Assembly (NCBI GenBank): GCA_036172245.1
Contig: JAYWIR010000002.1
Coordinates: 1,984,001-2,048,000, forward strand
Length of the DNA stretch: 64,000 nucleotides
Reading direction: 5' to 3'
From: Raillietiella orientalis
Taxonomy: Eukaryota
Part shown: one piece after another, positions 29,176 through 55,800 of the stretch
How the letters are laid out: every line of letters starts with the position of its first letter
Position numbering within the stretch: the stretch's first letter is position 1
Notes under the pieces: model-generated
The model's input: only the letters and a program-made list of their open reading frames with translations
Database searches by the model: none
Told to the model about the DNA's origin: nothing
Made by a program: the position numbers and the translations under genes

Positions 29176-32100
29176 TTACGCTGTGTCTGGGTCCGCGGAA
29201 AGTAATTCCTTGAGTTCGTCCAGAGTGCCTTGAAGTTGTTTGGAAAAATTGTCGGAGGATGTGAATTCGCAAGACTTGAAGCAGCAAATGGAGAACAGCA
29301 TCCTATTGCCTTTTAGATTATAGCAAACTCCATAGCCGTCTGGCACTACCGGTCCGTAACACATGAACGATTCTCCTGTTGTGGTAACCTGAAAAAGAGA
29401 GAGAGGAGAGAGAGAGGGGGGGGAGGAGGACAAAAAAGACATGCGACCCGGTAAGGGCCATCGCCGAGGAGAAGGGTACGCACCTTGCTTCGCAGGTGGT
29501 TGGAGCAGACGAGAGCGTGCATGGAAACCATGATAAACTGGCAGCTAACCTTTGGCTCGGGGATGAAGTTAAGGAAAAGATATGAGACGGAAAGCCACAG
29601 TACAGGCTGGCAGGATCCTGATCTGGCAGATTCTGTCGCTCTGTCCCATGTCACAGTTGGCAAGAAAGGGAGGAGGCCTGCACCTTTCAATCGATTGCTC
29701 CTCTCATCAGTACGTAGAGAGATGAGTGTTGCTTCTACAGGCTCGTGCCTTATGTCCACAATGTTCTGTCAGTCAGCCCTGAACGGCAGATACTACCAGA
29801 GCCCTTACACCATCTGTTCCTCTTAGATCGAGGACGAATGGAACGGATAGCTGGAGTCTATTAAAGAAGGATGCTCCCGCGCCGGGAACCAAAGTTGCCA
29901 CATCCGCGGTCCACCTCGAGAGCGGAAGGGGAGCTGTGCGGCGTGTTTCCGGCATTCTCTGTCCAAAGGGACAGTTCTCTTCCGAGGTCTCCGTGACGCA
30001 CCCCCAACAGGAGGCGTTCGGCTCCTCCTCCTTGCCTGGTTCACCACGTGAGTCTCGAACGCCACGAAGGAGAATCCAGCACTCCGATCGGGGGTGAAAG
30101 AGGAGGCTCTTCGCTCGATCTCCGCATCCGGCGTCCCTCGTGGGCGTCCGCTTCTGCCGCGGCCCTCCCCGGGTGCACTGCTGCCACGGCGAGCTCAACT
30201 CTGCTACGGCCCTCTTCGGAAGATCGAGGCACTGGAAAGACGCAGGCAGCGGCTCCTCTCACGGAAGCTGCGCTGCCGACGCCTGCGTCTCCCCTCGGAA
30301 GTGAGCGCGGCAGCAGCAAGCGGCAGCCTTCGTACTTTTTGCGGTCCAGAGGAACTCTCCTGCCGTGTTTTCCCGTGCTGCTCGTCATCCGTGAAATCGA
30401 AACCCCGCGTCCCGTGTAGCAGCAGCAGCGTGTGTCCTGTTACACCCGGGAATACTTGTCACGGGGATGCTCGTCCGTTTAATTCAATCGATGGGTCCCC
30501 CTGATCAGCTTTCTGCGATGCGTGAGGGCACTGTTTTCTTACGCGGAGCAGCTCCCTCCGTCCGATCCGACGAGAAGGGCTCCAGGGAAGGACGGGATGG
30601 AGGAAACGTGCCGACCGCTCCCCTTTAGTCTCCCTCCTTTGCTCCCGGCCAGGATCCGCCCCGGTCTGGGCCGTGTGCTCGGAAACCGAAGGAATGACAA
30701 CTAGCTGCTACCACCACCGCGGCTCTTTTCTTTCCGGCTCGGAATTCCTCCCTGCGTGTCTCTTCCTCTTCTGTGCGACAAGAGGAGGAAGGGCTCATTC
30801 GGGCTTCGCCCGCTGATGGTGTCGCGAAGAAAGCTTCGAGGAATCGAGGACAGAGAAGAGGAGGAAGAGGACCCAAGGAAACCGGGAGGAACGAGAATGT
30901 GTGTGTGTCGAGGGTGGGGGAGAGATGGGAAAGGGAAAGGGAACGTCTTCCTGCTTCGACAGCAGCTTCCGTAGAAGAGAGCTGGTGTGTCTCCCTGCCC
31001 GGCACGTCCCCTCTCCCTGCGCCCGCTCTTCAAAGAGGCCAACGGGGCGCGCCCTGCATTCGGCGGAGGAACAACAGTCCGAGGAAGATGCCAAGCAGAC
31101 CGCCCCTTTTCTCTTCCCCTTCGGGACGCTCCGCTTCTCCCGGAAGACTGGGCTACGCGTCCCCCGCGTTTCCCTATGCGAGTGAAGTGCCCCCCCCTCG
31201 CGGAGTGTCTGCAGCGGTGTCGACTGTCCAGCGCGACACGGGCGGTCGTCCACATTCGTCGCCGCCCTTAGATTGAGGGTCTCCGGATGAGAATGGAGGA
31301 GGTGCGGGATGGAAGGAGAGGAACAGTAGCCGGAGGAGGAAGGAGGCGGCCACCCACTGTGGCTCTCCGGCTCTGGAAGCGATGCCCGCACCGAGCCACC
31401 GTGCGCCTTCGTGGTCCTCTAGGTAACGCCGCCGCCGCCGCCGCCGCCGCGGCTGCTCTTCCCTCCCTGCCCTTGGGTCGGCGGGGACTGTTTCCTCGTG
31501 TGTGCCGCCGCCGCCGAAAGAGGATGCGCGGTCGCGGACGCGAATGCTGCCGGGAGGACGGGGAGAGGAAGGGGGAGGGATGGCGCGGCGGTGCCGCTTT
31601 GGATCTCTTCGACAAGGGTCAAGCAAGGGGTGCCGCAGCGTACCTGCGACGTCGACAGCCTGAAGCGGTTCACGAGCTGAAAGCTTGCGTCCCGGAACAC
31701 CTCCGGGGTCTGCTCGCCGAGGCACTTCGCAGCCTCCCTGAGCCCCAGCAGGTGGATGTCGATTCCCTGGCCGCTGATGTTTTCGTTCATGATCTCCTCC
31801 TGCTTACTCATGGCCTCCCGGAGCAGCACCAGCTTCTCGCGGGTCTGGCAGGATGGAGGGGACGGCGTCGGGGGGTGAGGGGTCTCCTGGGGAGCCCTAC
31901 TCACCGGCGTTCCCTCGTCGCACATGGCAACGACGAACCTGCGAGACTCGTCGGTGGTAGACCGGATGCAGTCCACCCTCCCCAGCCGGAAGCGCCTCGT
32001 GGACGCGCTCTCGTAGGTGGGGACGAGCTCCTGGTGCAGCCTGGAACCCCGGCGTTTTCTCTCTCCTCTCTTCCCGAAAAACGCTCCGGATCCTCGCCCG

Positions 32101-35100
32101 CACACGTCCCTATATTTCGTCCTGGGAAATCCGAACCGCTCTCGGCAATGCGCGCCGGTGCTCGCCCTGTTCCGCTAGAGGGGGAAGGATATGGGAGGAA
32201 CGGGGACGGTGGAAGGGAGAGAAGGAGCAGGAGTCTGGATGCTGTGCTCCTCCCCGGACCTGCCTTTTCCCGAGCCTCCTGAACGCAGAGGGAGGGAGGT
32301 TCCGCGAGGATGGAGACGCCGACCGCGGTGGGCTCGCCGAGAGCTCAGAAAAATCCTCTTCCTCCTCCTTCACCCCCCCCCTTCCGCTCTCCCTCATGCT
32401 ATGTGGAATGGCACCCCGCGACCACCAGAGCGTGATTCGTCCGGAGAGACGCCTCTGGCGCGGGCAACGTGGAAGCCAGCTGCAGGCGGTAGATGCGCGG
32501 GCTCCTACGGTCGCATCGCCACCCTGCGTCGGTGGCGCCCTGTGCGACGTGCTGCACCTTTGGCGTGTCTCCTGAGCTTTCGCATCCGCGCACCTCGGCA
32601 CTGGAAAATGACGCGGCGCGCGCTGGCGAGACACCCCCGCGATGCCTCTGGAATTCACGTCAGTCGGGGGAAGGGGTAGGGGGCACATCGCCGCAAGTTC
32701 CTGGCTCCCTTCCCGTGGACTCCACCCAGGAAAGAAGCAAAAGAGGAGGAGGAGGAAAAGGAGACCTGGAAGACTGCAGGTGACTGAAGGAAACGCTGAA
32801 GGTTTCGCGGATTCTTCAGCACTTTGGATGCTCGTCTGCCTGCTCGCCAGCTCTGTACCGTGATGCAATGAGCCATGTCGGTTTCCAGGTCCCGTAGCGA
32901 TGCGTACTTACTCGAACGATGGTGATCCGTACTGCTTCTATGCATGATATGTACATGTCTTGCAATAGAAGCACGAAGCTGAACGCGAAATCAAAAGATC
33001 CGCGGGCCCACGGCTAGGCTGAGCTCTCCCTCACACGTGTCTCTCGCGCAGCATTGTTGAACCCCCCCTCCCCCCTTCCCTTCCAGCGTATTTTTAAATC
33101 GCAAGAGGAAAGGGTCCTCCTTACGTGGCAGTTGTCGCTATGGAAACGAACGGCGAAGTTCTGTCAAGTGGATTTTCCGATGGGTTGTAACGCACGTTTC
33201 TGCTCTCTGTTCCCAGCATCCCTCTTGACGATTTCATCTCGGGAGCTCAGAAGGACCAAACCGAATTTTAAGAAGGCCCTTACGTTGTTGCTTCCTCCTC
33301 TTCACTGATTGACTTAGTCCGCTTCCGGAGGCTTCATTTCCGTCACGGCGTGTCTGAGAGTGTGGTCAGCCGCAGGAAACAAAGGTGCGGGAAAGAGTCA
33401 TCCCGATTCGGTGATGCAGCATCAGTTGGCCGTCTTGCCTTCTCAAGCTTTTTTTTTTTTTTCTCTTGTTTTCTTTTTCCCGTGTCTCCGTTCCGGAGGA
33501 TGCCTCCTCCTCCCTCGCGGCCTCTTCGATTCTTTTCGGTCGGACGATCCTTCTTGGATTCCGTGACCACGTCTCAAGAAAATGAAATTCCCGAGACCAA
33601 GACGCGGATGTGGGAAAGCATCCGTACGAGGTTTCAGGCAGTGGCGTCGTCACGAGAAACCAGAGGGGGCGGACAGAAGCGAGTGGATCCGGGGAGATGG
33701 AGAGGGGGGGGGGGGGGGAGGCTCTCCTGTGTCCTGACTCCCGGGTCGGGTGCGAGGTGCGAGTTCCCTGCACCGCGATCCTCCCCGCGAGTTCGTATGC
33801 GGAGGGAGGAAGGGATGACAAGGAACGCGGAGAGAACGCAGCCAGCCACCCCCAGCGTCCGTCTTCCCCAGGAAAGATGGTAGAGACACTCTTCGGAGGG
33901 CTGCTGCGGATACGCCCACCCCGCGAGAAGGGAGGGGAGGAATTCCGAGTGCACGTCCTTTTTTTTTTTTTTCCATTTTTCCTCCTCTCCCTCCGTGATG
34001 CCAGCCAGCGTGCTCAAGGGATGAGGGGGAAGGAAAAAAAGGAGGCCCGCTTCCTCTTCCCAGGATCGAAGCCTTCCGAATCCTCCCACAATGCGTCTTC
34101 CCGTCGGGACGTGGGGTCGCGCCTGCGCAGGAGGAGAAAGGAGAAAGAACAGGAGGGAAACGTGCATGTTTGCGGGGAGGGAAAAGAAGGCCGGATGTTC
34201 TGCAAGCGCGACCAGTCAGCGCAGGCGCGCAGCCTCCCCACTCCCTTTTTTGGGGGGGGTTCGCTGCAGCAAAAGAAAGCGCGCGATCGTTTCGCGCAGG
34301 AGCGCGTGGAGCGTCCGAGTCGGTCGGAGCTTCTTGGCGGAAGATCCGCCTCCCTTGTCCGTGCCCGGACTTCGGGTCGCAAAAAACTCTCCAGAATCCC
34401 TCCTATCCTCCCTCCCCTTCCCCTCTCCCTCCCTCTCTTCCACCCCGAGCACGGCGCCCCGGTCATCATCCGCGCCGGCGTCTCGCGCGCTCGGGAGTCT
34501 CGGGAGGTGAGCAGGCAGGCGGGGTGACCGTGGCAACGGGGCGGAGCGCTGCACTCTCCTCTCCCTGTGCTGCCGTTGCGAGACATGGATGCCGCCTGGA
34601 GGGCATGTGCTCCCCCCCACCCGCCAGTCCGAAGCAGGAAGGGGAGCACGGGGTGTACCGGTGTCTTCGCGCGCCGCCCTCCCGCCCCATCTCGCCTTCC
34701 TTTCCCGGAGGCTCACCTGTAGTGGGCAAGCTGCAGGGCGAGCTGTACGAACGCGTCCGGGCTGCAGCGACTACCCTTGACGAACTCCTTCCCGTACCCG
34801 CCGTAGCGGAGGACGCACAGGTCCACGTCCTCGCAGACCCTGGCAATACAAAAGAAGAGACTTTCGCGCGAAGGTGCCGCAGGGGGAACCCCCCTTTTTG
34901 CAAGAAGTTCCCCCCTCCCCGCTCCTCCCGCGTTCCATATGGGATCGTGAGCGTCGCCGACATGCAGCTGCTCCTCCCTGAGGAGGGCGTACCTCCCGGC
35001 TGGTAGTTCTCCTGCCCATGAAGGTCGAGGGAGGCAGCGGAGGGCACTGCCGCCGGATACCTTCCAGGCCCCCGCGTGGCTGCCTCACTCTTCGCCGCCC

Positions 35101-38100
35101 AGCCCTTTCGTGTGGGGTCCGGTGAGGTTACCTGGCCCTTCCCTCCTCCTCCTCCTCCTCCTTTGAATCCTTTTCGGCGTCGAGGGTCCGTCCCCTTCCC
35201 CGGAACAACCTCTCCAGGGGACGCACGGGAGCGGAGCAGGAGGAGGAGCGGGCGAAAGCTCTGGCCTCCTGCTGCCCCCAGAGTCTGGGGCCTACCGGGC
35301 TGCGGGAAAACCCGCGCTCGCTTCGGGCATACGCGGGGCCGAGGAGGGGTAAGGGACGGGGGTTGAACCCCAGCGCAGGATCCCCGGGGTGTCTGCGTGC
35401 GTGTGCGCGCGTTTGCTGCTCCGCGACGGAGGCGGGGCGTTGCGAGGCAACGGCAGGGTGGGGTGGAGTGGGGGATGGACGTTCCCTAAGGACGCCCTCC
35501 TCCGCTCACGGAACACCTCCTCCGTCTCCAGGCAGGCGCGCAAACGCCCTCCGCAGCCGCAGTCCTTCCCCTCCGCAGGGCGGGCCTTCCGTGGAGGAAG
35601 GGGAGCGCCGCCGCCATCTTTCATCCGGAGAGCGCGGAATTGATTTCTGCCGGGAAGGACTTCAGGGAGCTCCTGGAAGAAAGTTCCTCGACTCGCAGTA
35701 TCGATGGGTCTTTCGGGACGAAGAGGGAGGCCCTGGTACACGAGCTGCTTCCTTCCCTTCATTCCCGGCCGTACCTCCCCTCCTCCCGAAATCCCACCTC
35801 CTTGCTCACCCGGATCCTCCCCAAATCCAGCTCCATCCCCATTTAACCCTCATCCTTGCTTCTCCTTGATCTCCGTTCACACCCCTCGCTCACCCTCTCT
35901 CTTACTCCCCCACTCCTCTCCTTACTCTCACCTCCATCCTCACCCCTTTCCCATCCTCTGGACTCCGAGAATCCTTCCGTTGACCTCAGCTTTACCTCAC
36001 CGCCCTCTTGCTCCCTTTCTCACCTACTGCCCCCACCTCACTTTCATTCTCCCCCCATCTGACCCTCATCTTTACCCTCACCCATCCTCTGGTTTCAGGG
36101 AGCCCGCTCTGTATAGCAAGGGAGGCTCACGAGAGGGCGTGACGGGAACACAGGTCCATTCTCCCGTGGACATCCAGGATTTCCCCCCTCTTCCTCTCTG
36201 CAAAGCCTCGTCTCGATACCCCTTTCCCGTCCACCTTTTCCCGAAGGGCGAAAAGGCGCGTCGGTTGGTGCGTACCTCTCCAGGTTGTCTCCCGCGCTGT
36301 TGATGCGCTCCAACAGCTCGTCGTCCACATTCCAGTGGAGTCTCTCGACGGCGGGAGAGCCGGCGCAGTCCAGAGACTCGCCGTCCCGCGAATCGGCGCC
36401 CACGCCGCTGGAGAGGATCTTCTCCATCATCTGCACCACCACGACCCCTTCGGCAGGGGAGTGCTCGTAGCAGAGGCTGCATGCGCCGTCGTCTGCCAGA
36501 ATCACCTACAAGACGCGCGGGAGCCGCTTCCTCGTCTCCCCTTACTCCTGAGAGCCACCGGGAGGAGGAGAAGGAGGGAGGGAGGAGGAAGAAGAAAGGG
36601 GAGGAAGAGGAAGAAGGGAGGAGGAAGAGGAAGGGGTCTTGAGATTGGCCCGGCAGTCACGTCGTCAAAGAAGTGCTAAAGGGAGGCACGCGGGTGCACT
36701 CAGCTTTCAAAGAGATCCAGGCGGAAGAGAAGCGTGTAGGGGGAAGAGGTTCGGTTCCGCCACACTCCCTCATCGGGGGGGGGGGGGGGGAGATGAAGAC
36801 ACGGAGGAACAATTCGCTACTTCGAGAGGAGGATGCAACGCAAGAGTCGGTGCCTGTAAATGCTCGAGGGCGGCAGGCAGACCGACCTGTCCTCACCCGA
36901 CCGCCGAACGGTGGCATGCTCGCCGCCGCTGCCGGGGGAGGGCTTCAGGGTCTCCGTGGCAACCCGGTGCGCGGCGGTCCGCACGGCTGCCCTACCGCGC
37001 TCCCTCCTCTTCCTCCTCCTCGTGTCTTCATCATGATCCAGGATCGAGTGAAGGAGCTCTCCTTCCTTCCCTCTGCCCCGCCTTCAGGATGCCCTCCTGC
37101 AGCCCACCTGGATAGTCTTGTCGTACCACCGGTTGCCTCCGTTCCGCCGCGTTCCGCCTCCGTGCAGCGCCTGCAGCGCCCTCTCGATGTCGTCGCCGGC
37201 TCCACCACCCCCAGCACTCTCGTCCAGGCACACCAGGAAGAGACTGCTCTCGATGTCTTCCAAGGACGCCTTGTTGTCTGGATCTGCGGGGTGTCACGCG
37301 CGGGAAGGCTGGATTACAACTCCCGGGAGGGGCGAGAGGGAGCACGCGTTGCCCCCCGCCGCGACCCTCTTGACCCGGCTCCGAGCTCTTCTCTCTCGGT
37401 CCTGCATCTCCCGGACGGAAATCTTCCGATATCGCGACGTCCGGCGAGGTCGCCGAGAGCCTCCTCCTCCGAGAAGGGCAGTGGCAGAGCGGGAGAGGGC
37501 CACGACCTCTTCCCGCTTCCCTCCTCCTTCTCAGGGCTCCGTTTCCAGTGCGCGGACCGGAAGCTCTCTCCCTCGAGTCCCCGGGAGCCAGGAGGGGAGA
37601 AAGAGGGGAAGCAGGGGTGCTGCCCGCAGGCCCTTCCCTTCCCCACTCCTGCGCACTCACCGCTCAGGAGCATTCCGCGGGCGCGGGCCCACAGGTCCCT
37701 CCTCTCTGTGGTCAGCAGCCCCACGCTGGGATATGGCGCCTCCCGGCCCGCCCTTCGCTTCACCTCCTCCAGCATGGAAGCCACCTGCTTTTCGCCCACG
37801 GCCCTCCCGCCGACCCTCAGCGGCACCTTGAAGAACTGAAAGCATGCGGGCGTGAGGGCGGGCTCCGGGATGAAGGGAAGGGAGGGAGGGAAAGGGGGAG
37901 TTTTCCTCCTTTCCCTCACTCCTGCAGGCCGGAGGGGGCGTTTCTGGCCCCTGTGGTTTCTCTGGCTAAGGGTCGGGGGCCTGCCTGGTTCCTGCGTCCC
38001 ACGATGATGTGGTCCCCCGGAGTCTCTCCCTCCTCTAGGTGGTCCCGGTCGTCTCCCGGAATCCTGCAGGTTACGAACAGCCGTCGGTACTGTTCCATGC

Positions 38101-38658
38101 AGAGGGGCTGGCGCCCCCCCCGACCGGTCGAGTGCTCCTGTGGGAGCGCGTCGCTGCAACGAGAGGGGTTCTCGCTCGGAGTCCTCCACCTCCGCCCCAC
38201 TCCGGGCGGGGCGGGGCGGCAATGGTCGCCCACCTCTGGATGCTCTCCTGGAAGGAGAGGAGTCTGCGAATCATGGCGGCCGCCCAAGACGCGGCGGTGG
38301 GGCCGGCGCGGGACTCCAGGACCATCCCCGGGCTGGAGTGGACGGGCAGGGATGCCCGGTTTCTCAGGTACATGTCTTCCAGCCACCACTCGTACGCCTG
38401 GGAACGAGGTTGAGGCGGGGCCGGCAGGCAGGGCTCACCCACCCAGTTCTCCTCCTGCTCCTGCCTGCGGCGCAGGAATGCCTGCAGGCGTTCACCGCAG
38501 GCCCCCGGCCGCAGGAACGCCTCCGTCAGGCGGCGCGTCTCCTCGTAGCCCGCGGGGTCCACCAGCGTCCTGACCACCTCCAGGTAGCGGCCCATCGTCC
38601 TGCCCAGGTCGGGGATGGGTAGCTTGGGCGGAGCCGGCGCCGGCGGGGCAGGCGGCAT
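29176..38658 (-). CDS. ChAT: Choline O-acetyltransferase, core exons (600 aa from ATG 38658; probably N-terminally extended)
   Basis: Phase-consistent exons: 38658-38443, 38397-38234, 38153-37985 (GC donor), 37835-37661, 37283-37108, 36505-36276, 34839-34717, 32040-31905, 31844-31644, 29388-29176 (TAA). Motifs PKLPIPDL, ENW/AYEWWLEDMYL, LPVHSSPG, PLCMEQY, NRWYDKTIQ, catalytic YEHSPAEG (His codon 36463-36461), SPDAFVQLALQLA, TYESASTRRFRLGRVDCIR, LSTSQ and CYGPVVPDGYG. VDC (rather than carnitine-type TET) and linkage to VAChT indicate ChAT rather than a carnitine acyltransferase. Confidence 0.95.
34860..35715 (-). mobile_element. Inverted fragment of the same LINE family inside a ChAT intron
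   Basis: 35560-35710 is a close reverse-complement match to 26345-26495 (ATGAAAGATGGC, CCACGGAAGGCCCGCCCTGCGGAGGG..AAGGACTGCGGC). Weaker similarity to 27290-27600 continues toward 34860. Confidence 0.65.
35835..36090. repeat. C/T-rich low-complexity tract (CTCACC/CCTCAT-like units) in a ChAT intron
   Basis: About 250 nt almost devoid of G on the plus strand. Confidence 0.6.
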
Positions 38659-39107
38659 CTCCGCCTCCTCCCTTCCTTCCTTCCTTCCCGCCTCGGGGCC
38701 TGGCGGCGGCAGACAGACGGGCGTTGCTCGCTCGCTGGACGAAGGCGGCGCTGCTTCCCCCCTTCCCTTCTTTCCTCCCCACCGCCCTTTTCGCGCTGCT
38801 GCTGCTTTGAGCACCTCCCCTCTCCCCCACGTCCTCCCTGAGGTTCTTCGCCTCCTTAGCCACGCTGGAGACGCCGTCCCTTCCAGCAGGGAAACGTCCG
38901 CCGAGTGCTCCGCCTCAGCTGCGACCTCTGGGTCGAGCACCCTCCTCCGGAAACAAGGAGACGTCCGGGAACTGCTGGGGGAAAAGGCACGTACGGACGC
39001 CCTGCCACCAGCAGACGGTGCTCGGTTTGGCGGTGGGACGCTCGCGGTTTGCCGGTGGGTGTTCTTTGCCGTGGCCACGCGATTGTTTGCAAGGGCCTAG
39101 GCTTTAC

Positions 39108-39132
39108 TTTTGTTCAAGTGCACCGGCCGATG
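39108..39132 (-). CDS. ChAT: Putative 25-nt ChAT microexon (HRPVHLNK + 1 nt)
   Basis: Strong acceptor (long T-rich tract ending TTTTTACAG, AG at 39134-39133) and donor AAA|GTAAAG at 39107. Phase 0 in and phase 1 out, matching a phase-1 acceptor (GCCGCCAG, exon start 38699) in the ChAT frame. Confidence 0.5.
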
Positions 39133-41849
39133 CTGTAAAAATAAAAGAAAAAAAAAAAACGCTCAGTTCGGCACCGTGCACGTGACTAGGAAAGCGCTCC
39201 TGCTCCTGTGATCATCGCGGATTATCCCTCGACTGTCCTTATCGGAACATCTGATTAACGGACTCCCATGTGCAATGATGTGTTTAGTTTACGTGACTTT
39301 GCCTCATCATTTTGCGTACTACGAAAGCGACAATTCCTGCTCCCACGTAATCCAGCGAGCACCGAAGAGCGAAAAAACTGTGGACCCTTGGGGTTGATCC
39401 TCATTTCCATCCCCACTTTTAAACGAGGATTCTTCTTTATCAGAGGAATTCTCTCGGGTAGGAGTTTTTTATTTTGTCTTTCCCTTTCCCCTATCTTGAA
39501 AGGAATTCCGATTTCTCCTCTCCGTCTCTTAGTAGCACACGACACTCCTTCACAGTAGAGAGGCTGTTTGATTTGCCTCCTCCCAGTCATCTACGGTTCC
39601 CGAATCTTTTTTTTTTTTTCTTCCTGTTGCCTTAATTCCTTTTTGTTTTGTCGCGCCACCCACGAGGGAACCTTCCGCGCCCCCGCTTGCTGCGCGGTGC
39701 CGTTCGAAACCGCGGCCACGCTCGGCTGGGAAAGCATGGGCGTAGGGAAAAAAGCAGAGCCCTAGCCGCCCTCTTAAGGTTCTCGATTTTGCTAAAGACT
39801 TCCGATGGGACTGCCTCAGAAACGGTTTGACCCAGCAAGCCGGCTCACACACTTCCGACCGAAACGGTTTGCGTAAGGTTTCCCTAGGAACGCGGGAGAC
39901 ATTTATCCCGATTGTACGTTTATCGCATGGAGGTAAACGAGTTCTCCCAGCTGAAGAGGCAGATTGGTCGTAAGTCCCTGACTTCTTTTCGCTTCAGTCC
40001 TTTGCCCAGAAAGCCGACAGATTTTTCCGCCAATAGAAGGTGTTGAAGGTGATTTTTGTGGTCCAAGAGTTCCCAATCGCAGGAGGTCCTCTGCTTTCGA
40101 AATGGAGAATCCACCGGCTTCTCTAGAATGAGTTGCTGCGATCTCAAAGTCAGCTTCTTTAGCCAGGCGTGAACGCTCGCCTTTTAACGAGGGGACCGTG
40201 GAATGTCCAGAGTCGAAGCAGCCTGTCGTTTGAGGCTTTCTAAGGTGGCTGCGTCCACGAAGGAATCGGGGAGGCAGGAGAGCGCCGAATGCTCACGTCC
40301 TCCCAGCCCTGGATCGGTTGGTTGAGATGAAACAACACGTGCTCTCATTCGAAGGAATGGTTTTTCCCAGCAACATTGAAGGAAAGAAAAACGAAACAAA
40401 ACGCGCGCCCTCGCCACACGCTGGAAGAACACCTTGATGGAGACGGAACGAAAGGGAGGCGGCAATCCAGAAGGCCACCCGGTGCCTTGCGGCGGCATGC
40501 GCGACGCCATCTCCGATGCGGCATCACCACTTCTTCCACGTGGCGGTGGTCTCGAAGTCGGACTCGGTCAGCTTCCGTGAGATGTTAGTGCGACCGAGAG
40601 GAAGTTGGATCCCGGTGGCGGATCTGCGAGGACGCACCCTTCCCCGCAACCTGCCGTTTGCCAGCGGGATTTTTTCTTGGGTTCCAGGGACGTAAACAAT
40701 CTCTGCGGCTGAATGAAGCTTGGAACTGGACCCAGACCGAAGTCATAGGTGTGCTTGAAGACGGAGCCAGTTGTTGGGTGCGGAGTGACCTCCAGTTCCA
40801 TTCGCGTCTGTTTCCTTTCTTTGCGGCTGTCAGTTTCTTCAAATGAATATTCTTTTTTCGTTTTTCGTTCAGCTGGTCCATTTAAGGCGGATGGAAACCT
40901 CTTAAGGCTGCCTTCTTTCCGTATAAATGTGAAGAGAGCAAATGAATAGCAGCCGACGCCTCTACATTTTTCTATAAATAGCGAGTATTAAGCTGTTGAG
41001 CTAGCTATTTCAGGCCTCCCCAGCACCCTCGGAAACCCTCTCCGAGGCATAGATCTATCAGTATGGGGTGAAAAACCCGTCGATGTCTCAAAATGAGTTC
41101 TGGGAACCTTTGTTCTTGATCCCCTGGACGTATCTGCGCCACTGGTCACGATGCATGCTGTTGCCAAAGCCTGACCCTTGTCACTGGAGATATCCTGCTA
41201 GGCCGATCTTCCATTTCCATGCAGACAGCAGGTGGTCCGTTCTGTTTCGATGGCTGGCTCGGTTTCCGCTGCGCAGTGATTCAGTGATGACGCTCGAGGC
41301 GTCCTTGCGTGCTCCACAAAGTCGTTTCACACATCAACTGACACCAGCACGTCTTGTGCGTCTGCGATGATGAAGGTACCTTGCTCTTGCGGCTACTGCT
41401 GCCTCTATGGCACCTTCAGTCTTGACCTGAGCGCGTTTCAAGCAGACTAAGGTTCTTCTTTACAGACTGGATGTTTTCTGCACACCGCATGAGAGCAAGC
41501 TCCCCCCTTCCTCGGCTCCCTTTTCCGTTTCGCGAAAATTTGGTTCCCGAACCTTTCTAAAAGGCTTCCCGTCCCCTTTTTGAGGCATCCGTCCTTGGGG
41601 ATTGGGCAAAAACTATCGACTCCAGGTGGAGTTTTTTTTTGGGGGGAGGGGGATCACCTTCATTCTGATGTTCGACTCTTCTTTCCCCGAATGAAGCAGT
41701 GGGAAGCAGGAAAAGTTTCCATCATGCCAAAAGAGTTGACTTCTTTGGAAACAAAGTTTCCTGGAGTGACTTCTTGCTCGTTAAGAAGGAAGAAGGATTT
41801 GGCTAATTTGGCATATTCCAACGCGCGCTCAATTTATTACCAGGTTTCC

Positions 41850-43010: not shown

Positions 43011-43124
43011 AGGATCGACTCTGAGAACGGGAGGTGCATCGTGGGTCTCGAGTCCTCACGCAGGGCGACGCTGGTTGGCCTGCAGGCTCGGATGTGGCAC
43101 CAGTGGGAAGCCCCTCGGATGCCC

Positions 43125-43370
43125 CTGTTGACTGGTCGGAATTGGAAGTCGACAATCCAGGGTCCTTCCGGGAATCAAAGAGTGCGGGTTGTCTTCGGGG
43201 TTCCCCTTTGGTTGCGCAAATGGAGCCGCTTCCCCCCTCGTAGGGGAATGGGACCCTCCATCGCGTGCCATGAAGATGGTTGATAGCCCCATCTGGGGGT
43301 TGCCTTTCCAAAGTGTGAAGAAGCGCGCTGCTCGCTTCGGGCAGCGCCCTTCAGAGAAATCGGGAAGCTG
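43125..43370 (-). repeat. Dispersed repeat, inverted homologue of 57690-57940
   Basis: Reverse complement shares TCCCGATTTC.CTGAAGGGCGC, CGAGCAGC.CGCTTCTTC.CACT.TGGA, GAACCCCGAAGA and GAAGGACCC..TCGACTT.CAAT with 57690-57940. Confidence 0.7.
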
Positions 43371-46300: not shown

Positions 46301-49300
46301 AAGCGAGGAACGAACCCCACCATCCCATCATACCCGTCTGTCTCCTCTTTTTCCTCTCCCTTTTTGGCTTCCCGCGGCGGTGGCAGCAGCGGCGGAAGTC
46401 GCAACCTCTTTTCTACCACCACCGCTCGACTCCCTTTCCTCATCCTCGTAGGCCCGAAGTGTTGATGGTGCTTCCACCGGTGAGAGGGCTGCGTGGACGC
46501 GGGGCAGTGCTTCGTGGAGCGGAGAGCGTCCTGCCGGATGTGCCCCTCTCCCCATCCCTCCGCTTACCTGACGGGCCAATCCCTCCGCGCGAACGAAAGG
46601 AGGCGCGTCCCGCCCCCTCAATCCTCCTATCCCCGCGGCACTCCATCTTTCTCACCGCCCTCAATGCTTCCCTTCGCTCGGGGAGGAACGTCCCCTGGCA
46701 TCCCCACGCTCCGGGGTGCTTCGGCGGCTCGCTGAAGACGCGCGATTCGTCTTTTTAGGTGAGACAGGAGAAGAGTGGGGAAGGGAAAGGAGGGGGACAT
46801 GCATACGCCACCACCTTCCTTATGCTGCTAAGGGTACGAGGAAGAAGGAGAAGTGGGGTGTGGACACTCGCCCTGTGGCCCCCCTCCGCCTCTTCCAGAC
46901 ACCTAAAAACCCCTGCGTTCCTTCTGTTGCTGCTTCGGGGGGGCTGGACAAAGTGGGCGGTGACCCTAACACCTCGAAGGCGAAAGGACTCCGTGTTGCG
47001 TTATCCTCCACCTTGACCCCCACCCACGACGTGGGAAAAGTAGGCTTCGAACGGGGGTTCCCGCCGGTCTGAGAGGGAGAGGGAAGGACGGGGGGAGCAG
47101 AGCCGCCTTTTGAGATGGCTCCGGGAGGTCATCGGTGGTTTCCGGTGCCTCCCTGGCTCCACGCGAGGGACGACCCTCTCTCGTGCCCCTCCCGGATTTA
47201 ACCTCGGAGCCAGCGGCGATTCCCCGCTCACTGACTCGCTGTCCGGGATGGGACACGAGGGAGGGGATATCCGGGCGCAGGTTCCCTCTTCCCTCAGTCT
47301 GAAGGACGGAGAGGGTTTTAAGAGTCTTGCTCTGGGCATCCCGTGATGCTGGAATGCCTCTCGATGCCAACTCCTGCAGCTCCTATTTGCCTTCCCCACC
47401 AGGATGCATCCCACGGCCTGTGAGTCAGCCTCCACGTCTCCCCTCCAGCTTCCTCGGGAAGATGGGCCAGGGCCGCAGAGTCTCTCACCCTCGCCGAAGT
47501 ACCCCTGGAAGCCTGGGAAGCGTCAGCGGACAGGAGGCGTGTCCTTCCGCTTTCCGGAACACACGCGAGCGGGGGGGCTGACTGCCCCACCTCGGTGACC
47601 CTCGCTTCTCCACAGGCTGCGGGTGGGTAACGGGGAAAGGGGAGAGGAGGGGACGGGAAACGGAGTAAGGGAAAGGAAAACCCTTCTGGGCGCTCGTTTC
47701 TCTAGGGAGGCTCCCGCTGGCATTCAGTTCCTTCAGCTGGCAAACCTGGGGATCTTTCAGAGGGTTCCCTCCCCCCTCCGGTTCGTCTTCCCTCCCCATC
47801 CGATGCCATCTGGAGATCCTGTCTCCCCCCCCCCCACACACACACCAGAGCCAGGACACTTTCGTGCTTCGACCCACCTTCGCAAGTCTTCCCTCCTCGC
47901 GGCAGTCGGAAAGGCAGTGCGCGCCCGACTTCCGCGGTCTCCTCGCCCTCGTGAGTTACGCAGCAAAGGCTCGGGCTGGTGCTTTTCCGCACTTTCGAGG
48001 GCGAGGAGCTTTCGCTGTCCTGAGAGGTAAGCCGTCCTCCTCCCCCTCCTTCCCTTCCTTCCTCCTCCTCTTCCGGAAGATCTCAATCTCCACCCTGACG
48101 AAGCCGCGCGGGAAGCTGCCATGGAAACGCGCCGTCCCTTCTTACCTTTCCCTCTTCTACCATGCGGACCGTTACCTATGAGTAGGGGTGAAATGTTGTC
48201 TCTTCTTCCTTTTTTCCCCTTTCGTCCACCCATGATCTCTTCCCTCTTCGCGGCATTCTCCCAGCGGTGGAAGCGTTCCCTAGCCGGATCTCCCAGCTAC
48301 CACCGGAATAAAAACAAGTGGGAGAGAGAAGGGAATTGGCCGCTTTCACCCTTCTCCCTAGTTCCCCTCCCGTATCCTTGGAGATCCCTTGTTACCACTT
48401 CGTCTCCTGCGTTTGTGGAGATGTGGTCCTCCGTCGAGAAGCTGCTCCGAGAAGCTCCAAGGGACCCGAAAACCCAATGATCCCCACGACCTTAGCAGGG
48501 CAGTGGCAGATGCGCTCGGAGACCCTCTCTCCAAGAGGGAAAGGGTGCAGATGACAGAGAAACCTTTCCCTCCTTCCCGTAAACCCTCCAACAAAAGGCA
48601 AGTGAGTGGCCTTCGCCGGGTCTTTGATTTCCATTTTATTCAAGCGGAAGCCATCCGGTTCCAAGCACACCGTTAGACCTCTCTCCATTCCAAGGAGAGG
48701 CGGTCTCTCGGACCCCCCCATCCCCTTGACGCCTCTCCTTTTACTCGCTCCTCGGGAAAGTCTTCCCTTGAGTGAGACTTGAGACCTGGCTTGGAAGCGC
48801 GGAAGCTGCGGAAATCTCCCGCGGATCGAAGGGCACAAAGAGAGAGAGGGGGAGAGGAAGGATAGCGAGGAGCGGAGGGGGTGCGAGCGAGGGAACGGGG
48901 GTGAAATTGGTGGTGGTGGGGACTCACGGAAAAAAAAGAAAAAAAAAAAAAGAGTGTAGCGAGTGCACGCGAAAGACAAGAAAGGAGCTTATGGACTCTC
49001 ACGCATCTGGTCGAGAAGCCATCCCGGAGGATGACGCTCCCCCAAAAAACGTCTCACTCCCCCCCTGCTCCTCCCTTCAAGAGGAGCATCTAGCAAGCAA
49101 GATGGTCAAAGATACCGCATAGGAGCAGAGAGAGAAAGAGGGAGAGGGAGGGGTGAGAAGAAAGGAAAACAAATAAATAGATAATCCAGATATCTGTGCA
49201 TCCAGATACCGGGAGCATTTTCTCGTGTGCGCAGGGAAAAACCGTGAAGTCATGCTCGACTCAACCGGTTCTTTGCCGATTATTGCTTTTTTACCGGCTT

Positions 49301-50296
49301 CGCGGTTCCCTCGGACCGCGGACGCCTGCGGGAACGATCCCTATTCCGGAGCGAACCTCCCAGGCAAGGCGCCCTTCATCTCTCTTTTCTTCTCTTCCCC
49401 CCCTGGTTGCCGTGAGCGGTGGAAGTGGGAAGGAAAAAGAAGAGGAGAAGGAGGAGGAGGGCGAAGAGGAAGACCCCATCCCTCCTCCAAGGCGAGAGGA
49501 CGGACGGAACACATAGACAACGAACAAACGCTCAACGAACGACGGGGATGGACGTGGATGAAAGCCGGGCGAGGCGACTCAGGCGGTAAGAAGTCTCCAG
49601 AAAAAGGAAGAAGAGACAGAGGATTGCTACTACGACAACGACTTTTGCTGCGACATGAAAGAGGGCGGGAGAGGCGCGCCTGAGCCTGGGGGGGCTACTG
49701 CCTCTGCAGGCTTCTTTCCGCGCGTGCGCGGGAGCGCAGTGAGGTCTACACGAAGACACCGAGGACCAGGACGAGGAGAAATGGGTGAACGAAGGGGAGA
49801 GTTCGATATGTCTGATTCTTAGTTTGTTCAGAGGTCACGTGACCCCCGCAATGTAGAGAGAAAATAGAAGAGGAGGAGAAACCTCGCTGCTGCTGCTCGT
49901 TGGAGATTCGACAGTTGACTCCTCCCCGGAAGAGTTCTCCGGGCTGCTTGAGAGCAAGCTCAGCAGCAGCAGCAGAAGAAGAACCGAAAGTTCTAGAAAT
50001 CCTTCCCAGTAGCAAGCTGGGACAACCGCTAGCGCAGCAAGAGCGCGGACGTGGGATAAGGAGGGGGGCTGGGGAGGGAAAGTGGAGGGTAAAGTGAACG
50101 GAAGCTCCTCCGAGAACCTATCCTGGTCTTCAGACCATCACTGAACCACTGGAAAGGAACGGGGATTTGTTTTGGTCTTCCTGCGACAAGAATTCTCCTG
50201 GGACGTTATCTCGAATGGTGGAGCAGATGGCGGGTCGGAGGAGAAAAACAAGAACTAAACAAGAGGAGGGAACCAGGAGCATCTGCAAACTCCACC

Positions 50297-52120
50297 TCAC
50301 TTGTCTTGGAGGTCGGCGAAGTTCCTCTCGAACGGGTTGGTTCGGCGGTGATCGCTGACGCGGAAAGGGTTGTACGGCGCTTCCGGAGGAGACGCCACCG
50401 GCGCCTTCCCGCTGGCGGCAGCCACATCCGAGCTACCGAAGGAGAACTGCAGTTGCTCTTCCGGGATGCGAGAGCGCCTGCCTTTGTCGTCGTCCGCCTC
50501 TTCCGGGTCGCTCTTCCTCCTCGAGGAGAGGACGTGCCTCTCCATGGCAGCCCTCACGTCATCGAGGGCGGCCTTCCCCGCACGACTGCCGCCGTCTCGG
50601 AGCGAGAATCGTTCTTCCGGATCGCCGTCCTCCTCCCCGTCACCGTCCTCCTCGTCGAAGGCCTTGTAATCGTAGATGTGCCTGAGGGCCCACAGAGCAG
50701 GGATGTACAGCAGGTTGGACAGGGCGATGAGGAAGTTGAGGGCAGTGAACCCAATGGACTCCACGATCCCTCCCGCTATGACGGGCCCGATGGCGTAGGC
50801 GAACGAATACGAGATGTCCGCTATGGCGTAGATGCTGCCATACACGGACACGTACCGTAGGTCCACGAGGTAGCCCAGCGTGGGCAGCAGGGCGGTGTCG
50901 ATGATGGCGATGCCGAAGCACAGGATCGATATGGGCAGCATGAGGACCCAGTAGTTCTTGGAGAAGGGCACTATGACACAACTCAGCCCTTCTAGGGCGA
51001 GCCCCACAGCCGCCATGGCGTACTGGTAGTGTGGGTACCTGCCCGCCAGCTTGATGGTTAAGAGCACACCCGCCAGGTGAGGCAGGAACGCGGGCAGCCA
51101 AATCATTCCCATCTGCCAGTTTTCGATGTCTGTCATCGTGTCCATCATCCACACGGAGATGGTGGGCTCGAGGAAAGCGAGGGACACGTTGGCCGTGCAG
51201 AGCGCGCCAGCGCAGATGGCGATGTGCTGGTCCATGAGCAGCCTCCAGATGGGGGTCCCCTTCGGGCGCTTGTAACCCTTCTTCTTCATCTGCTGCTTGA
51301 TGGGCTTCATGATGAACATCAGCATGAGCCCGTCCACCAGGCAGAGAAGGGAGAGCATGAGGAACGGGAGCTCCTTGCCCGCGAACTCGTACAAGAGTCC
51401 TCCGAAAGGAGGAGACACCAGAGAGCCGAACGAGATGAACGCCAGGGCGATGCCCAGCGCCCGGGTCCTCTCGTTCTCCTCAGTGAAGCGGTCGGCTATC
51501 ATCGCCAGCCCCGAGGTGTCCGCGAAGGCCGATCCCACCCCTTGCAGACTCCTCGCGAAGAACAGCAGCCCGTAGCTGGAGCTGCACGCGAACACGGACG
51601 TGGAGAGGAACATAATGGTGAGTCCGATCATCATGGGGACGTCGTAGCCGATCCTGTCGATCACCGCCCCGGAGAACGGGTTTACCATGAGCTGTACGAT
51701 GGCCTTCGACGCGAACAGGAAGCCGATCGCCGACTCCTCCCCTTCGTACACCGTCACCCCTTTTATCACCCGGGACGAGGTCTGATTCGAGGCTGCTACT
51801 GAGGTGGCGGCTGCGTCGCTGGAGTTGACGGTGCTGTTGGCGTACCACACGTCTTCGGGGACCATCTCCTTCCTACCTCCGACCGTGTGCGTGTCCCAGG
51901 AGCCTATCTTCCGCAGGTAGTCTGGGATGATGGGCACGATGACCATGTACAACATGTTATCCAGCAGGAGAGCTATGGAAACGATCACCAGGATCAGCTT
52001 TCTCTGTTCCTTGGGCTCCTCCAGTCTCTGGTGGATTCTGTTCTTCGCCCACACGAGAGGAGGAGGCAGGGGCACATCTTCCCACTCGAAGCGCTTGTTG
52101 ATAATGGGAACCACAGGCAT
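50297..52120 (-). CDS. VAChT: Vesicular acetylcholine transporter (SLC18A3/unc-17 orthologue), intronless ORF, 607 aa
   Basis: 12-TM MFS protein with LVIVSIALLLDNMLYMVIVPIIPDYL, N-glycosylation sequons in luminal loop 1 (NST, NSS, NQT), LFASKAIVQL, ARSLQGVGSAFADTSG, LAFLEPTI and YGSIYAIADISYS. Located 5' of the ChAT core exons on the same strand. Confidence 0.97.
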   Translation of the reverse strand: MPVVPIINKRFEWEDVPLPPPLVWAKNRIHQRLEEPKEQRKLILVIVSIALLLDNMLYMVIVPIIPDYLRKIGSWDTHTVGGRKEMVPEDVWYANSTVNSSDAAATSVAASNQTSSRVIKGVTVYEGEESAIGFLFASKAIVQLMVNPFSGAVIDRIGYDVPMMIGLTIMFLSTSVFACSSSYGLLFFARSLQGVGSAFADTSGLAMIADRFTEENERTRALGIALAFISFGSLVSPPFGGLLYEFAGKELPFLMLSLLCLVDGLMLMFIMKPIKQQMKKKGYKRPKGTPIWRLLMDQHIAICAGALCTANVSLAFLEPTISVWMMDTMTDIENWQMGMIWLPAFLPHLAGVLLTIKLAGRYPHYQYAMAAVGLALEGLSCVIVPFSKNYWVLMLPISILCFGIAIIDTALLPTLGYLVDLRYVSVYGSIYAIADISYSFAYAIGPVIAGGIVESIGFTALNFLIALSNLLYIPALWALRHIYDYKAFDEEDGDGEEDGDPEERFSLRDGGSRAGKAALDDVRAAMERHVLSSRRKSDPEEADDDKGRRSRIPEEQLQFSFGSSDVAAASGKAPVASPPEAPYNPFRVSDHRRTNPFERNFADLQDK

Positions 52121-52374
52121 CCTCTTTCCTCAGGAAGCGTTCAAATAAGGAGAGGCTTCTGGGAGGAGATTCCTCGACAATTGCGAGTGTCCAGCCGGCG
52201 ACGACCCGTGGTCCACGTCACGCCGCGCTCTTTGGTTGGGTGCTCTCTGGCGTCGTGCGTCCGCATCCCTCCCCCTCTCTCTCTCTTTTCTATACCAGCA
52301 GCAACCGTAGTCTGAAGACGACGACGACTCCGCAACTGAGAGTCTCCATGAGAAAATGTCTTCCTCACTTGGTC

Positions 52375-52430
52375 CTTGAGAAAAAGAAGAGGAAGGGAGA
52401 GAGAGAGAGAGAGAGAAGAAAAAAAAATAA
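52375..52430 (-). promoter_or_regulatory. Polypyrimidine tract and putative VAChT 3' splice acceptor (includes (CT)n microsatellite)
   Basis: About 50-nt pyrimidine run ending TTTTTCTCAAG; the exon would start at 52374, 254 nt before the VAChT ATG. Confidence 0.5.
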
Positions 52431-52650
52431 AAATCAACTTTTGGTGGTGACTGGGGCAGCAACTGCAGCATGCTTTTGTTTCTTTTATGCAGAGCAAACC
52501 GCTCGACTCCCCGCCTTCGCGAGGGCGACTGGCGCTACATCAGCTGGGTTGTCCAGGGAGACGCTTGACTGCGTTCAGCGGGGAACGGTCGCGTACCGCG
52601 AGAAGGCGGCGCACAGTCCGCCTTCTCGCGCCCGCCTGTGGCTTTCTTAC

Positions 52651-52827
52651 GGCTCGCAGGTCCAGCTCGAACTCCGTGAAGGGGTCCTTTAGTAGAGGGG
52701 AGCGATCGTTGCACTGAGCGAGCGCTGGCCGCGATAGGGCCATCCATCGGGTCCACCACCAGCTTCCAAAGGCACGGCGACCACAACTACGAGAGTTCGC
52801 GACTACACCGGAAGCTGCTCCATCCAT
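52651..52827 (-). CDS. ChAT: Putative shared ChAT/VAChT upstream exon, encoding the ChAT N-terminus MDGAASG...DPFTEFELDLRA (59 aa)
   Basis: ATG at 52827 follows a pyrimidine tract/CAG (52835-52834). Exon ends at a phase-0 donor GCC|GTAAGA (52650), just 5' of VAChT, as expected for the shared first exon of a cholinergic locus. Confidence 0.55.
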
Positions 52828-55800
52828 GTCAAACTGGAGGGGGGAGAAGGAGGAGGAGAACGGGGGGAGAGAGAGGGCGGTAAGGTTGTCGTTGTCCTTG
52901 CCGCGCGGGATTTGAACTGACCAAATCAGAGGCGAGTTAGAGAGGCAAGCGAATAGAACTGCCAATCATGTCCCGGTGAGTGGAAATGCTTGAGACAGCG
53001 AAGGAACGGAGACGATAGAAAGGAAAATAGAAATAGGGAGAAAAGGACAGCCAGTGCTTTCCCTTGGGCGTGCGCCATTCTTTCCGCTTCCCATCGGGGG
53101 AAAGTTCCGGAGGCGCCGCCTCCCTCCCGGTCGGTCCAGTGAAGCAACCTGGGGGAGAGCCGATCTCGTTCCCACCCTCGGTGACGCCGCCAGCCCTTTC
53201 CCTGATCCGCTTCGGGAGTCGCCTCGCCTTTCAGGGAACGAAGGGGGCAAAAGGGGTTCCTTTTGAGGAGTCTTCCCGGGGGAACGCTCCCTCCATCGGT
53301 CGAGGGACGACGCCACTCTGCGACAACGACGCTCCCCCCCTCATTCCCTCCTCTGGGTCAAGCGGCGGCGTTCCCCTCCCGAGAGGCGGAGAGGATCTGC
53401 GGATCTGCTCCTCAGCTCCCTTTCCGCGAACGCGCCCCTTCCGTCGAGAGAACACCCCCCCCCCACACACACACACAGACACCCTGAGCTCGCGAGCCAC
53501 GGAAGAAACCCCGGGACTACTCGGATCCGGGAATCCCTTCCTCCTCCCATCGTCCAAGCATCATCTAAGAAGACTCCCCTGGGGTTAGACGACCTTCACT
53601 GGACCTTCTGGAGGAGGACCAGAGGGGGGTTAGCAGCAAGCAGAGAGCGCCACCCTTCGGGGGAGCGAGACGGAAGGAGGGGTTGCTCCCTGCCCAGGTT
53701 CATGTTTAATGGCCCCCTGCCCTGTCCCATTCCGGGGCGTGCGGTTGGTGACCTTCGTTTTCGGGAAGGAACGGCGCTGCCTGTCCCCTGCCCCACTGCT
53801 GCCCGGCAAACCGCTCAGCACCGTGATGGCCGGGGAGAGGTGGGTGCGCGCTCCTTCCGCCCTCGAGTCTCTATGATGACTCCGAACGAAAAAGATCCAT
53901 CTCTCTTGCCTCCCCCACCTCCCCCACTTCTCCATGCTCCTTCCGAAAAACGCGAGCCCCAGAGGCAGTGTTTCACACGGAGGACCCAGCCGCGTTTCCA
54001 CCGACGGGGGAGACGGCTCAGCACCGAGGTGGTCTCCTCCTCTCCGCCGCCAAAGCCATCTGTTCTCCGGGACTCCCTCGCGCGCGCCCTTTCCCTACCT
54101 CTCCCCTCCTCCTTCCACTTGCGGGCGTCATGCCGGTCGGACGCCGCAGGTAGGGGAGACCCCTTTCCTCTGCCCCTGTGATGACCTCCGAACAGCCTCC
54201 GACGCTGCGCTGTCTTCCGCTGCCCGTGGGCAACCCCTGTCTGCTTTCGCTCGACCGCGTCTACCACTGAGGCGCCCTCCCCTGAGCTCTGCGGCGATGC
54301 AGGGTCGATCTTCCCCGCCGTTCCCTTCAGGACATGGCCCGCGACGGGTGATCCTCGTAAAGGGAAAGTCCTGCCGCCGCCACCCCGCCGCAAAGTCGGG
54401 AAGACTTGCGCAGGTAACGCGATCGGCAGTCCCGCTTCCTCCTCTTCGGGATGCCAGGGGCGATCTGCGGGGAAAGCTGGTTCCAGGAGGAACAGCGTCT
54501 CCCCACCCACCCCTCCTCTCCTCACCCTCTCCAACGGAAAAGGAAAACAAGGGAAAACGGGAAGAAGAGTGTCCAGGAGCGAACCCAGGAAGCGGAGGAT
54601 TTCCGGGTCCGGCCTATCGATTCCTTCCCTGCCTGGTTTCTCTGCAGAAAGAGGCCGCAGGAGCGTGGGTCAAAACGACCAGAAAAACGGCGAAAGCGCG
54701 TCCGAGGGAGGGGTCAAACTGGGATGACCTTGGGAAAAACCTCCCCGCTTCCCCCTCCCCCCGCTTTCCCATACCTTTTCCCTGCTGCGAGAACGACACC
54801 GGAAGGACGTCCCGTCGCTCATCTGCGGTGGAGCGTGGTCGGGGAGGGGTGGACCGAGAGGGAAAGAAAAAGGCTGGAGCGAGGATGCGGGGTGGTACTT
54901 CCGCGTTTTCCTTCCTCCTCGCCGCTTACTCTGCGTTCCGGGAAGGCACAGGCTGCACACGCTTTTTTTCCCTTCCCTGAGAAGGCGGCCGGGATCGGGG
55001 AGGGAGAAAGGGGAAGGGGGGGTGGAGGGAGGGAGGGGATTACTGACGAGACACTCGCCGTTTGCTCCGGAGCAAATCCATTCCTTACCGGGAACAAATC
55101 CGCGCCGCGGCAATTCCAGACTGCAATTTTTCACAGATCTGCCTGTGGGCGTTCAGGGAGAGCGCGGCGCAAACTGCGAGCAAATCCTTGCTTGGGGACC
55201 ATCCGTCGCCTCCGGAATTATCTCGCCGGCAATGAGATAAACGCCGCCGAGATCCTGCCAGCACCACAGTGATAAAGGTCCCCGAGATTCCGAGCTGGCT
55301 GCGAGAGGTTCGGTACGTCGCGGGCTTGACGAGATACCGGGAGACAGATAAGATAAAAATGGCTGGATCAGCTCGGGCGTCCGACCGAGCAGGGCAGCCC
55401 GCGGAGGGACAGAGTGAAGCGCGCGCTGGGGAAGGGGAGAGGAGGGAGGGGGGGAGGGAAGCGCACATGCTGTCACCTGACGGGGGGAGGGTGCGAACCC
55501 GTCCGGAAGCCGATTGGGGGTCACGAGCTGCGTGGGAGGAAGGAAGGGCAGGACCATGCTCGGACCTCAACGATCGGGGGAACCGAACCGCCTGGGGTGA
55601 TCTGGAAGCCACTCGGCGGCCATTGCTGCACGCGCAGAGTGCCACTCGTCGCTGGCGCCCCGAGAGGTCCTGCTTTGCTACCCTACGAATGTCTCCATTC
55701 GCTGTGCGCCTTCCTCGGTGGACCAGCCACCTTGCACCTGGGACCTTCTTCGGAGAAGCAGACCTAAGCTCCGAAATTCGCCATCTTCGAAGACGGGGGG

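Follow-up and report, generated by a model that had tools for sequence, protein, structure and literature searches.

The arrangement in which the gene for the vesicular acetylcholine transporter (VAChT) stands upstream of the gene for choline O-acetyltransferase (ChAT) is known from worms, flies, moths, ticks and vertebrates. In C. elegans (unc-17/cha-1) and vertebrates (SLC18A3/CHAT), the first intron of the enzyme gene contains the transporter gene, and the two genes have a common 5' noncoding exon. Here, we analyzed a 64,000-nt stretch of the Raillietiella orientalis genome (GenBank assembly GCA_036172245.1, contig JAYWIR010000002.1, positions 1,984,001 to 2,048,000), which we call the window and number from its first letter. 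Both genes are found in it on the minus strand, VAChT (52120-50297) being located upstream of all conserved ChAT coding exons (38658-29176). The region is an ordinary bilaterian cholinergic locus, complete for its coding parts. Judging from the sequence, we consider it reasonably probable that ChAT starts at ATG 38658 and that its leader is noncoding and shared with VAChT.

In the ticks Ixodes scapularis and I. ricinus, an 82-bp shared exon 1 is described as confirmed by reverse transcription PCR, and the whole VAChT open reading frame (ORF) lies in ChAT intron 1 (PMC7524744). The R. orientalis locus resembles that of Ixodes in having the VAChT ORF in one exon on the same strand, and the acceptor-like sites that we found before both downstream units are compatible with the tick layout. 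It differs in exon number, the tick ChAT being presented with 16 exons that include a mutually exclusive pair (PMC7524744), whereas our model has 10 coding exons with junctions predicted from sequence. According to an account of lepidopteran loci, shared exons 'usually encode 5'-UTR' (5' untranslated region), and exons 1 and 2 consist entirely of UTR in Bombyx and Heliconius (bioRxiv 10.1101/2021.03.29.437568). Bombyx mori, Danaus and Heliconius are reported there with shared upstream exons, then the VAChT exon, then ChAT-specific exons, an order with which the present locus would agree (bioRxiv 10.1101/2021.03.29.437568). The shared leader exons are two in that account, and the acceptor-like tract preceding our candidate upstream exon (e1, described below) would fit such a two-leader layout. 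The moth locus differs in that a long N-terminal extension is described as encoded downstream of VAChT, and the insect N-terminal motif was not found in the window. In Drosophila, the VAChT coding region is described as nested in the first ChAT intron, with a common precursor proposed for both transcripts (PMC5342825), and fly ChAT is listed among non-AUG starts (PMC4528330), unlike the present gene, in which a plain ATG stands 11 codons before the conserved domain.

The VAChT-upstream-of-ChAT order on one strand is the already-known arrangement, and the locus adds one more case to a textbook pattern of conservation. What it offers in practice is annotation, namely a clean ChAT model of 10 exons and 600 aa and a VAChT without introns, in a GC-rich genome that is arthropod-like and apparently unannotated.

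The VAChT and ChAT genes

VAChT is a single ORF:

52120-50297, minus strand: VAChT (SLC18A3-type) ORF, from ATG 52120 to the stop codon at 50299-50297; 607 aa plus stop, intronless

The ORF matches Pfam MFS_1 (E 2.2e-38) and proteins named vesicular acetylcholine transporter, mostly from arthropods, with 55-69% identity and E values down to 2.6e-214. The top matches have E values of 1e-194 to 1e-214, and none exceeds 69% identity in the searched collections. Single and uninterrupted, the ORF aligns from M1 with 13 homologues.

The ChAT exons were modeled by tblastn with named insect ChATs and unnamed representatives, followed by enumeration of frame-preserving GT/GC-AG pairs. The resulting core model has 10 coding exons totaling 1803 nt (600 codons plus stop), with no internal stop:

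38658-38443, minus strand: exon 1, starting with ATG 38658; matches the Pfam Carn_acyltransf profile from position 1, with the KLPIPDL motif from 38625
38397-38234, minus strand: exon 2, from the tblastn/splice model; preceded by a 45-nt intron
38153-37985, minus strand: exon 3, preceded by an 80-nt intron and ending at the GC donor CAG/GCAGGC
37835-37661, minus strand: exon 4, from the tblastn/splice model
37283-37108, minus strand: exon 5, from Pfam and the tblastn/splice model
36505-36276, minus strand: exon 6, with the catalytic-histidine motif YEHSPAEG
34839-34717, minus strand: exon 7, from Pfam and the tblastn/splice model
32040-31905, minus strand: exon 8, from the splice model
31844-31644, minus strand: exon 9, from the splice model; preceded by a 60-nt intron
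29388-29176, minus strand: exon 10, including the stop; preceded by a 61-nt pyrimidine tract plus CAG

Nine stop-to-stop ORF pieces jointly span positions 1-573 of the Pfam profile Carn_acyltransf (PF00755). Residues 11-594 of the predicted protein align with proteins named choline O-acetyltransferase, the best being P0340, an insect ChAT (49% identity, 616 columns, 504 bits), and the YEHSPAEG motif is aligned with the same motif of insect ChAT. By homology, the enzyme is choline O-acetyltransferase, the best matches all being so named. All nine homology-fixed ChAT donors have G-1 and G+5 (TGG/GTGGGT, GAG/GTGGGC, CAG/GCAGGC, GCG/GTGAGT, CAG/GTGGGC, GAG/GTACGC, CAG/GTGAGC, CCG/GTGAGT and CAG/GTACGC, the slash marking the exon-intron border). 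For intron 37984-37836, CAG/GCAGGC is the sole donor consistent with frame and homology, which makes it a GC-AG intron; the nearest GT donor would remove six conserved residues. The short introns 38442-38398 (45 nt), 38233-38154 (80 nt) and 31904-31845 (60 nt) are each stop-free in frame, and an ORF-based annotation would therefore read through them.

The distance from VAChT to the ChAT core is about 11 kb, and the 13.5-kb interval 52650-39133 contains the whole VAChT ORF. An earlier reading of this sequence (the original prediction) had described both this interval, as the first ChAT intron, and a nested cholinergic locus. The coordinates bear out the interval, and Pfam, homology and gene order support a cholinergic locus in which VAChT stands directly upstream of ChAT in the same orientation. 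For comparison, we used a set of 80 metagenome loci encoding a VAChT relative (514,535 nt in total), among which six contigs have the same gene order, with the first conserved ChAT exon downstream of VAChT on the same strand. Two public predicted representative proteins, P0167 (1165 aa) and P0228 (1360 aa), have a VAChT-like first part and a ChAT-like second part; both probably arose when gene prediction merged the two genes of nested cholinergic loci in other species.

The ChAT start codon and a shared leader

We infer that translation of ChAT begins with ATG 38658, the conserved KLPIPDL with which the acyltransferase domain starts lying 11 codons further on. Homology to relatives starts at residue 11 after this ATG, and position 1 of the Pfam profile falls right after it. 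Coding potential was measured by a codon log-odds score in which VAChT and ChAT served as coding and the introns and the VAChT-ChAT interval as noncoding sequence. In the first ChAT exon, the segment of maximal coding score runs from 38670 on, four codons ahead of ATG 38658, and the 146 open codons upstream of this ATG in the ChAT frame score -0.31 per codon, which is noncoding-like. A search with the 72-aa first ChAT exon against longer-protein candidates gave no match at E<=1e-3. The region 39215-38658 has no ATG, which fits a 5' UTR. The bases immediately before the start codon are neutral by the codon score:

38659-38699, minus strand: 41 nt between CCGCCAG/G and ATG 38658; +0.04 per codon over 13 codons

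They are either 5' UTR or, if the 25-nt stretch discussed below is a microexon, codons 69-81 of a longer ChAT.

Two acceptor-like tracts, one upstream of each gene, suggest where a common leader would join them, and a third precedes the candidate leader exon itself:

52374-52438, minus strand: acceptor-like 65-nt pyrimidine tract (T run and CT repeat) ending AAG, before the VAChT leader
52121-52373, minus strand: putative VAChT 5' leader; contains two upstream ATGs, 52349 (19 codons) and 52266 (41 codons)
39133-39160, minus strand: T-rich polypyrimidine tract plus CAG; 19 of the 22 bases preceding the YAG are T
52831-52886, minus strand: C/T-rich, acceptor-like tract of 56 nt, ending CAG (AG at 52835-52834), 6 nt upstream of ATG 52827
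52833-52651, minus strand: candidate 5' exon e1, with ATG 52827-52825 and a 59-codon frame to the donor-like GCC/GTAAGA

The 65-nt tract before the VAChT leader implies an upstream exon. No acceptor-like site on the minus strand is richer in T than the one at 39132, which is one of 11 that pass a looser filter; the tract before it, 39133-39160, is likely the 3' splice site of the long VAChT-containing intron. Strong acceptor-like sites thus precede both the VAChT leader and the ChAT start region and therefore point to at least one upstream 5' exon. In the model that we favor, one or more short exons upstream of VAChT would serve as 5' leader, 52833-52651 being the best candidate, with donors after 52651 or 52597 (the latter a second donor-like site of e1, GCG/GTACGC, also phase 0). 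The leader would be spliced alternatively, either to acceptor 52374, giving the VAChT mRNA, or across VAChT to acceptor 39132, less likely 38699, giving the ChAT mRNA. The ORF from ATG 52827 would then be an upstream ORF (uORF) outside ChAT, and the 25 nt after acceptor 39132 would be the start of a 5'-UTR exon. Acceptor 39132 would probably begin the first exon specific to ChAT. In the simpler reading of the sequence, this would be a 690-nt exon running to 38443 with a 474-nt 5' UTR.

Since an acceptor-like tract lies just before ATG 52827, e1 may be an internal leader exon (52833-52651), preceded by another 5' exon. The tract 52886-52831 belongs to a group of 11 on the minus strand in which pyrimidines make up at least 92% of 50 nt; the plus strand has six. 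Further upstream, TCAGTT at 52920-52915 is a sequence that we take to resemble an arthropod-type initiator. With the candidate junction 52651>52374, ATG 52827 opens a 136-codon ORF ending in TGA 52143-52141, and this stop is 20 nt upstream of the VAChT ATG. The 136-codon ORF and the two further upstream ATGs fit a regulated leader, or a transcription start downstream of 52743, and discriminate weakly between models.

The original prediction had assigned e1 to the coding sequence of ChAT, as a 59-codon ATG exon (52827-52651) followed by a phase-0 donor. The ATG, the open frame and the GTAAGA are all present; the coding function finds no support in codon periodicity, codon score or homology. The GC content of e1 by codon position is flat (.63/.61/.61), against.57/.42/.84 in VAChT and a third-position value of.91-.92 in the tested GC-rich ChAT exon pieces. 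Set against 1221 stop-free noncoding windows of 59 codons, its codon score (-0.128 per codon) is at the 95th percentile; against 219 coding windows it is at the 1.4th, these windows being drawn from the training genes, so that the separation is somewhat optimistic. A maximal-segment coding scan (at least 12 bits) recovered VAChT and 9 of the 10 ChAT exons; on the minus strand it found no segment in 52.2-64 kb, where frame 0 of e1 peaks at 9.3 bits over 11 codons, which is noise level. The 59-aa e1 peptide, with an unusual five tryptophans in 59 residues, had no Pfam match and no usable ESM Atlas neighbour. The tblastn comparison that had been proposed for it gave no match at E<=1e-3 in the 80 VAChT loci, and the loosest match (E 0.016), which lies inside a VAChT ORF, was rejected as noise. 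Nucleotide searches of the e1 and 25-nt regions against the 80 loci returned nothing meaningful, and comparison with the rest of the window detected no self-similarity, so neither is a repeat.

We also compared the window with the N-termini of insect ChATs. Among 120 proteins compared, 42 have at least 25 residues before the LPxLPVP motif, and 23 of these 42 carry a GW-type N-terminal motif. A hidden Markov model of the 23 N-termini, searched against 2166 ORF fragments of the window, gave a best E of 2.3 at 4156-3893, away from e1. This motif occurs in 2 of 150 representative proteins and looks insect-specific, and its absence here is therefore weak evidence. Taken from its sequence, e1 is probably a noncoding leader or a uORF.

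Several observations weigh against a start at ATG 38658 behind a noncoding shared leader. The support for leader splicing consists of splice-like motifs. ATG 52827 is the first ATG of e1, has a good context (GACATGG, with G-3 and G+4) and opens a frame that continues through the donor; we estimate the chance of a 59-codon open frame at this G+C at about 15%, a mild point in favour of coding. Nor is the codon test clean, since the last ChAT exon, which is genuine and lies in lower-GC DNA, has a score of -0.123 per codon. If transcription began upstream of 52827, both mRNAs would carry a long uORF (136 or 70 codons), which is awkward for a plain leader. The lack of ATG upstream of 38658 is not significant, and we rejected it as a UTR signal over 39132-38659: dinucleotide shuffles held 0.66 ATG on average and 44% of them were also ATG-free (P(0) 0.44). 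Finally, start codons split onto an upstream exon do occur in the ChAT family, to judge from the sequences of three of the six related loci that carry both genes. In these three (L077, L030 and L025), an acceptor-like AG marks the beginning of the LPxLPVP exon, two or three codons ahead of the motif, and this exon has no in-frame ATG; the ChAT start codon there must therefore lie in an upstream exon. The other three (L074, L039 and L078), like this window, have an in-frame ATG within the LPxLPVP ORF.

Competing readings of the 5' end

Vertebrate ChAT also uses promoters downstream of VAChT. The R. orientalis genes could have separate promoters and no shared exon, with ChAT transcription starting at about 39.2-38.7 kb and the T-tract 39160-39137 being a simple repeat or a promoter element. 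We regard this as unlikely, with a small but appreciable weight. Pyrimidine tracts are common in the window (11 on the minus and 6 on the plus strand), and the splice junctions here are predicted from motifs, both of which would suit separate promoters. However, the tract 39160-39133 has a textbook TTTTTACAG at its end and no such site on the strand is richer in T, the 65-nt tract before the VAChT leader calls for an exon further upstream, and the tick and lepidopteran loci, as far as these accounts describe them, all have a shared 5' exon (PMC7524744; bioRxiv 10.1101/2021.03.29.437568).

The remaining readings give ChAT an N-terminal extension that begins in e1 or in another exon. One of them involves a short stretch after acceptor 39132:

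39132-39108, minus strand: 25-nt stretch proposed as a microexon, followed by the donor-like AAA/GTAAAG and an in-frame TAG at 39099-39097

In the original prediction, e1 codes the 59 N-terminal residues of ChAT, the 25-nt microexon shifts phase 0 to phase 1, and acceptor 38699 completes a 681-aa protein, whereas skipping or read-through yields the 600-aa form. The acceptor-like CCGCCAG ending at 38700, the in-frame TAG and ATG 38658 are present as described. Of the two sites said to define the exon, the acceptor holds up well, being very strong, and the donor less so: GTAAAG is there, but G-1 and G+5 are both missing, against nine of nine other ChAT donors that have them. Microexons tend to need strong flanking sites. 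On the sequence, it is more likely that 39132-39108 opens a longer 5'-UTR exon, of which it would be the initial 25 nt, than that it is a microexon.

The frame count behind the 681-aa protein is correct, in that 177, 25 and 41 nt joined to the 1803-nt ChAT coding sequence give an open frame of 681 codons; the join itself counts for little. The 33 nt between acceptor 39132 and the TAG contain two GT, at 39124 and 39108, and after this acceptor only these two donors keep the frame of ATG 52827 open. Upstream of its ATG, the ChAT frame has no stop for 146 codons (other frames in this GC-rich DNA are likewise open there), and donor 39108 can therefore be joined in frame to 18 acceptor-like AGs (12 for donor 39124). 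With so many acceptors fitting, a frame-compatible join is to be expected whether it is used or not: of the 694 GT/AG pairs after acceptor 39132, 30 allow ATG 52827 to be read in frame without a stop. The in-frame join is a frame coincidence, not more than chance, and the same goes for a GT occurring in those 33 nt and for the 59 codons over which the frame of the ATG stays open.

An extension could reach ChAT by another route, namely from e1 to a phase-0 acceptor such as 38691, through donor 39124, or from an unrecognised coding exon in 39-50 kb or beyond 53 kb. Twelve phase-0 acceptor-like AGs are compatible with the phase-0 donor, the interval offers further pyrimidine-tract/CAG sites (e.g. 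45594 and 46827), and an upstream start exon is needed in the three related loci named above. Yet the coding scan of the minus strand finds no segment of at least 12 bits from 50.3 to 38.7 kb, nor any upstream of 52.2 kb. Pfam scans matched none of the 40 ORFs of at least 120 aa between VAChT and ChAT (39.5-50.1 kb) and none of the 54 ORFs upstream of VAChT (52.1-64 kb), and an ATG is already present in the ChAT exon where homologues start. We hold such a route to be improbable.

The microexon itself appears slightly less probable again: its motifs and frame counts are all correct, its ATG has G-3 and G+4 and a frame open to the donor, its acceptor is very strong and split start codons are found in three of six relatives, but these points are outweighed by the donor, the chance-level join (18 acceptors for donor 39108), a first exon with no codon periodicity, a noncoding-range score, five tryptophans in 59 residues and no homology to any ChAT N-terminus or family, and an ATG that, in the VAChT splice form, opens the 136-codon ORF ending 20 nt before the VAChT ATG. 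Its role as a frame adaptor finds no support, given the donor and a frame match that is not statistically special, and the proposed switch between long and short ChAT, which was pure inference, is not supported. If it were true, inclusion of the microexon would yield a 681-aa ChAT whose N-terminus is novel and rich in tryptophan, in place of the 600-aa core enzyme, and this would be a lineage-specific, splicing-coupled choice of ChAT N-terminus. ChAT and VAChT translation would also be linked via a shared start codon, with the 136-codon uORF on the VAChT mRNA. This would be of interest to specialists of the cholinergic locus and would leave the general picture unchanged.

Sequences around the two genes

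Minus-strand pyrimidine-tract/CAG sites also occur elsewhere in the VAChT-ChAT interval, with first exon bases at, for example, 45594, 46827 and 50254; these could be alternative 5' exons or nothing. The window is eukaryotic and mostly GC-rich (0.48-0.65), with an AT-rich block at 6-14 kb (GC 0.32-0.38). This block, in sharp compositional contrast with the rest of the window, contains a compact TM9SF/EMP70 gene at about 9323-7448 on the minus strand, of which seven ORF pieces match Pfam EMP70 with E values of 5e-10 to 2e-30 and an eighth matches it weakly (E 0.0017).

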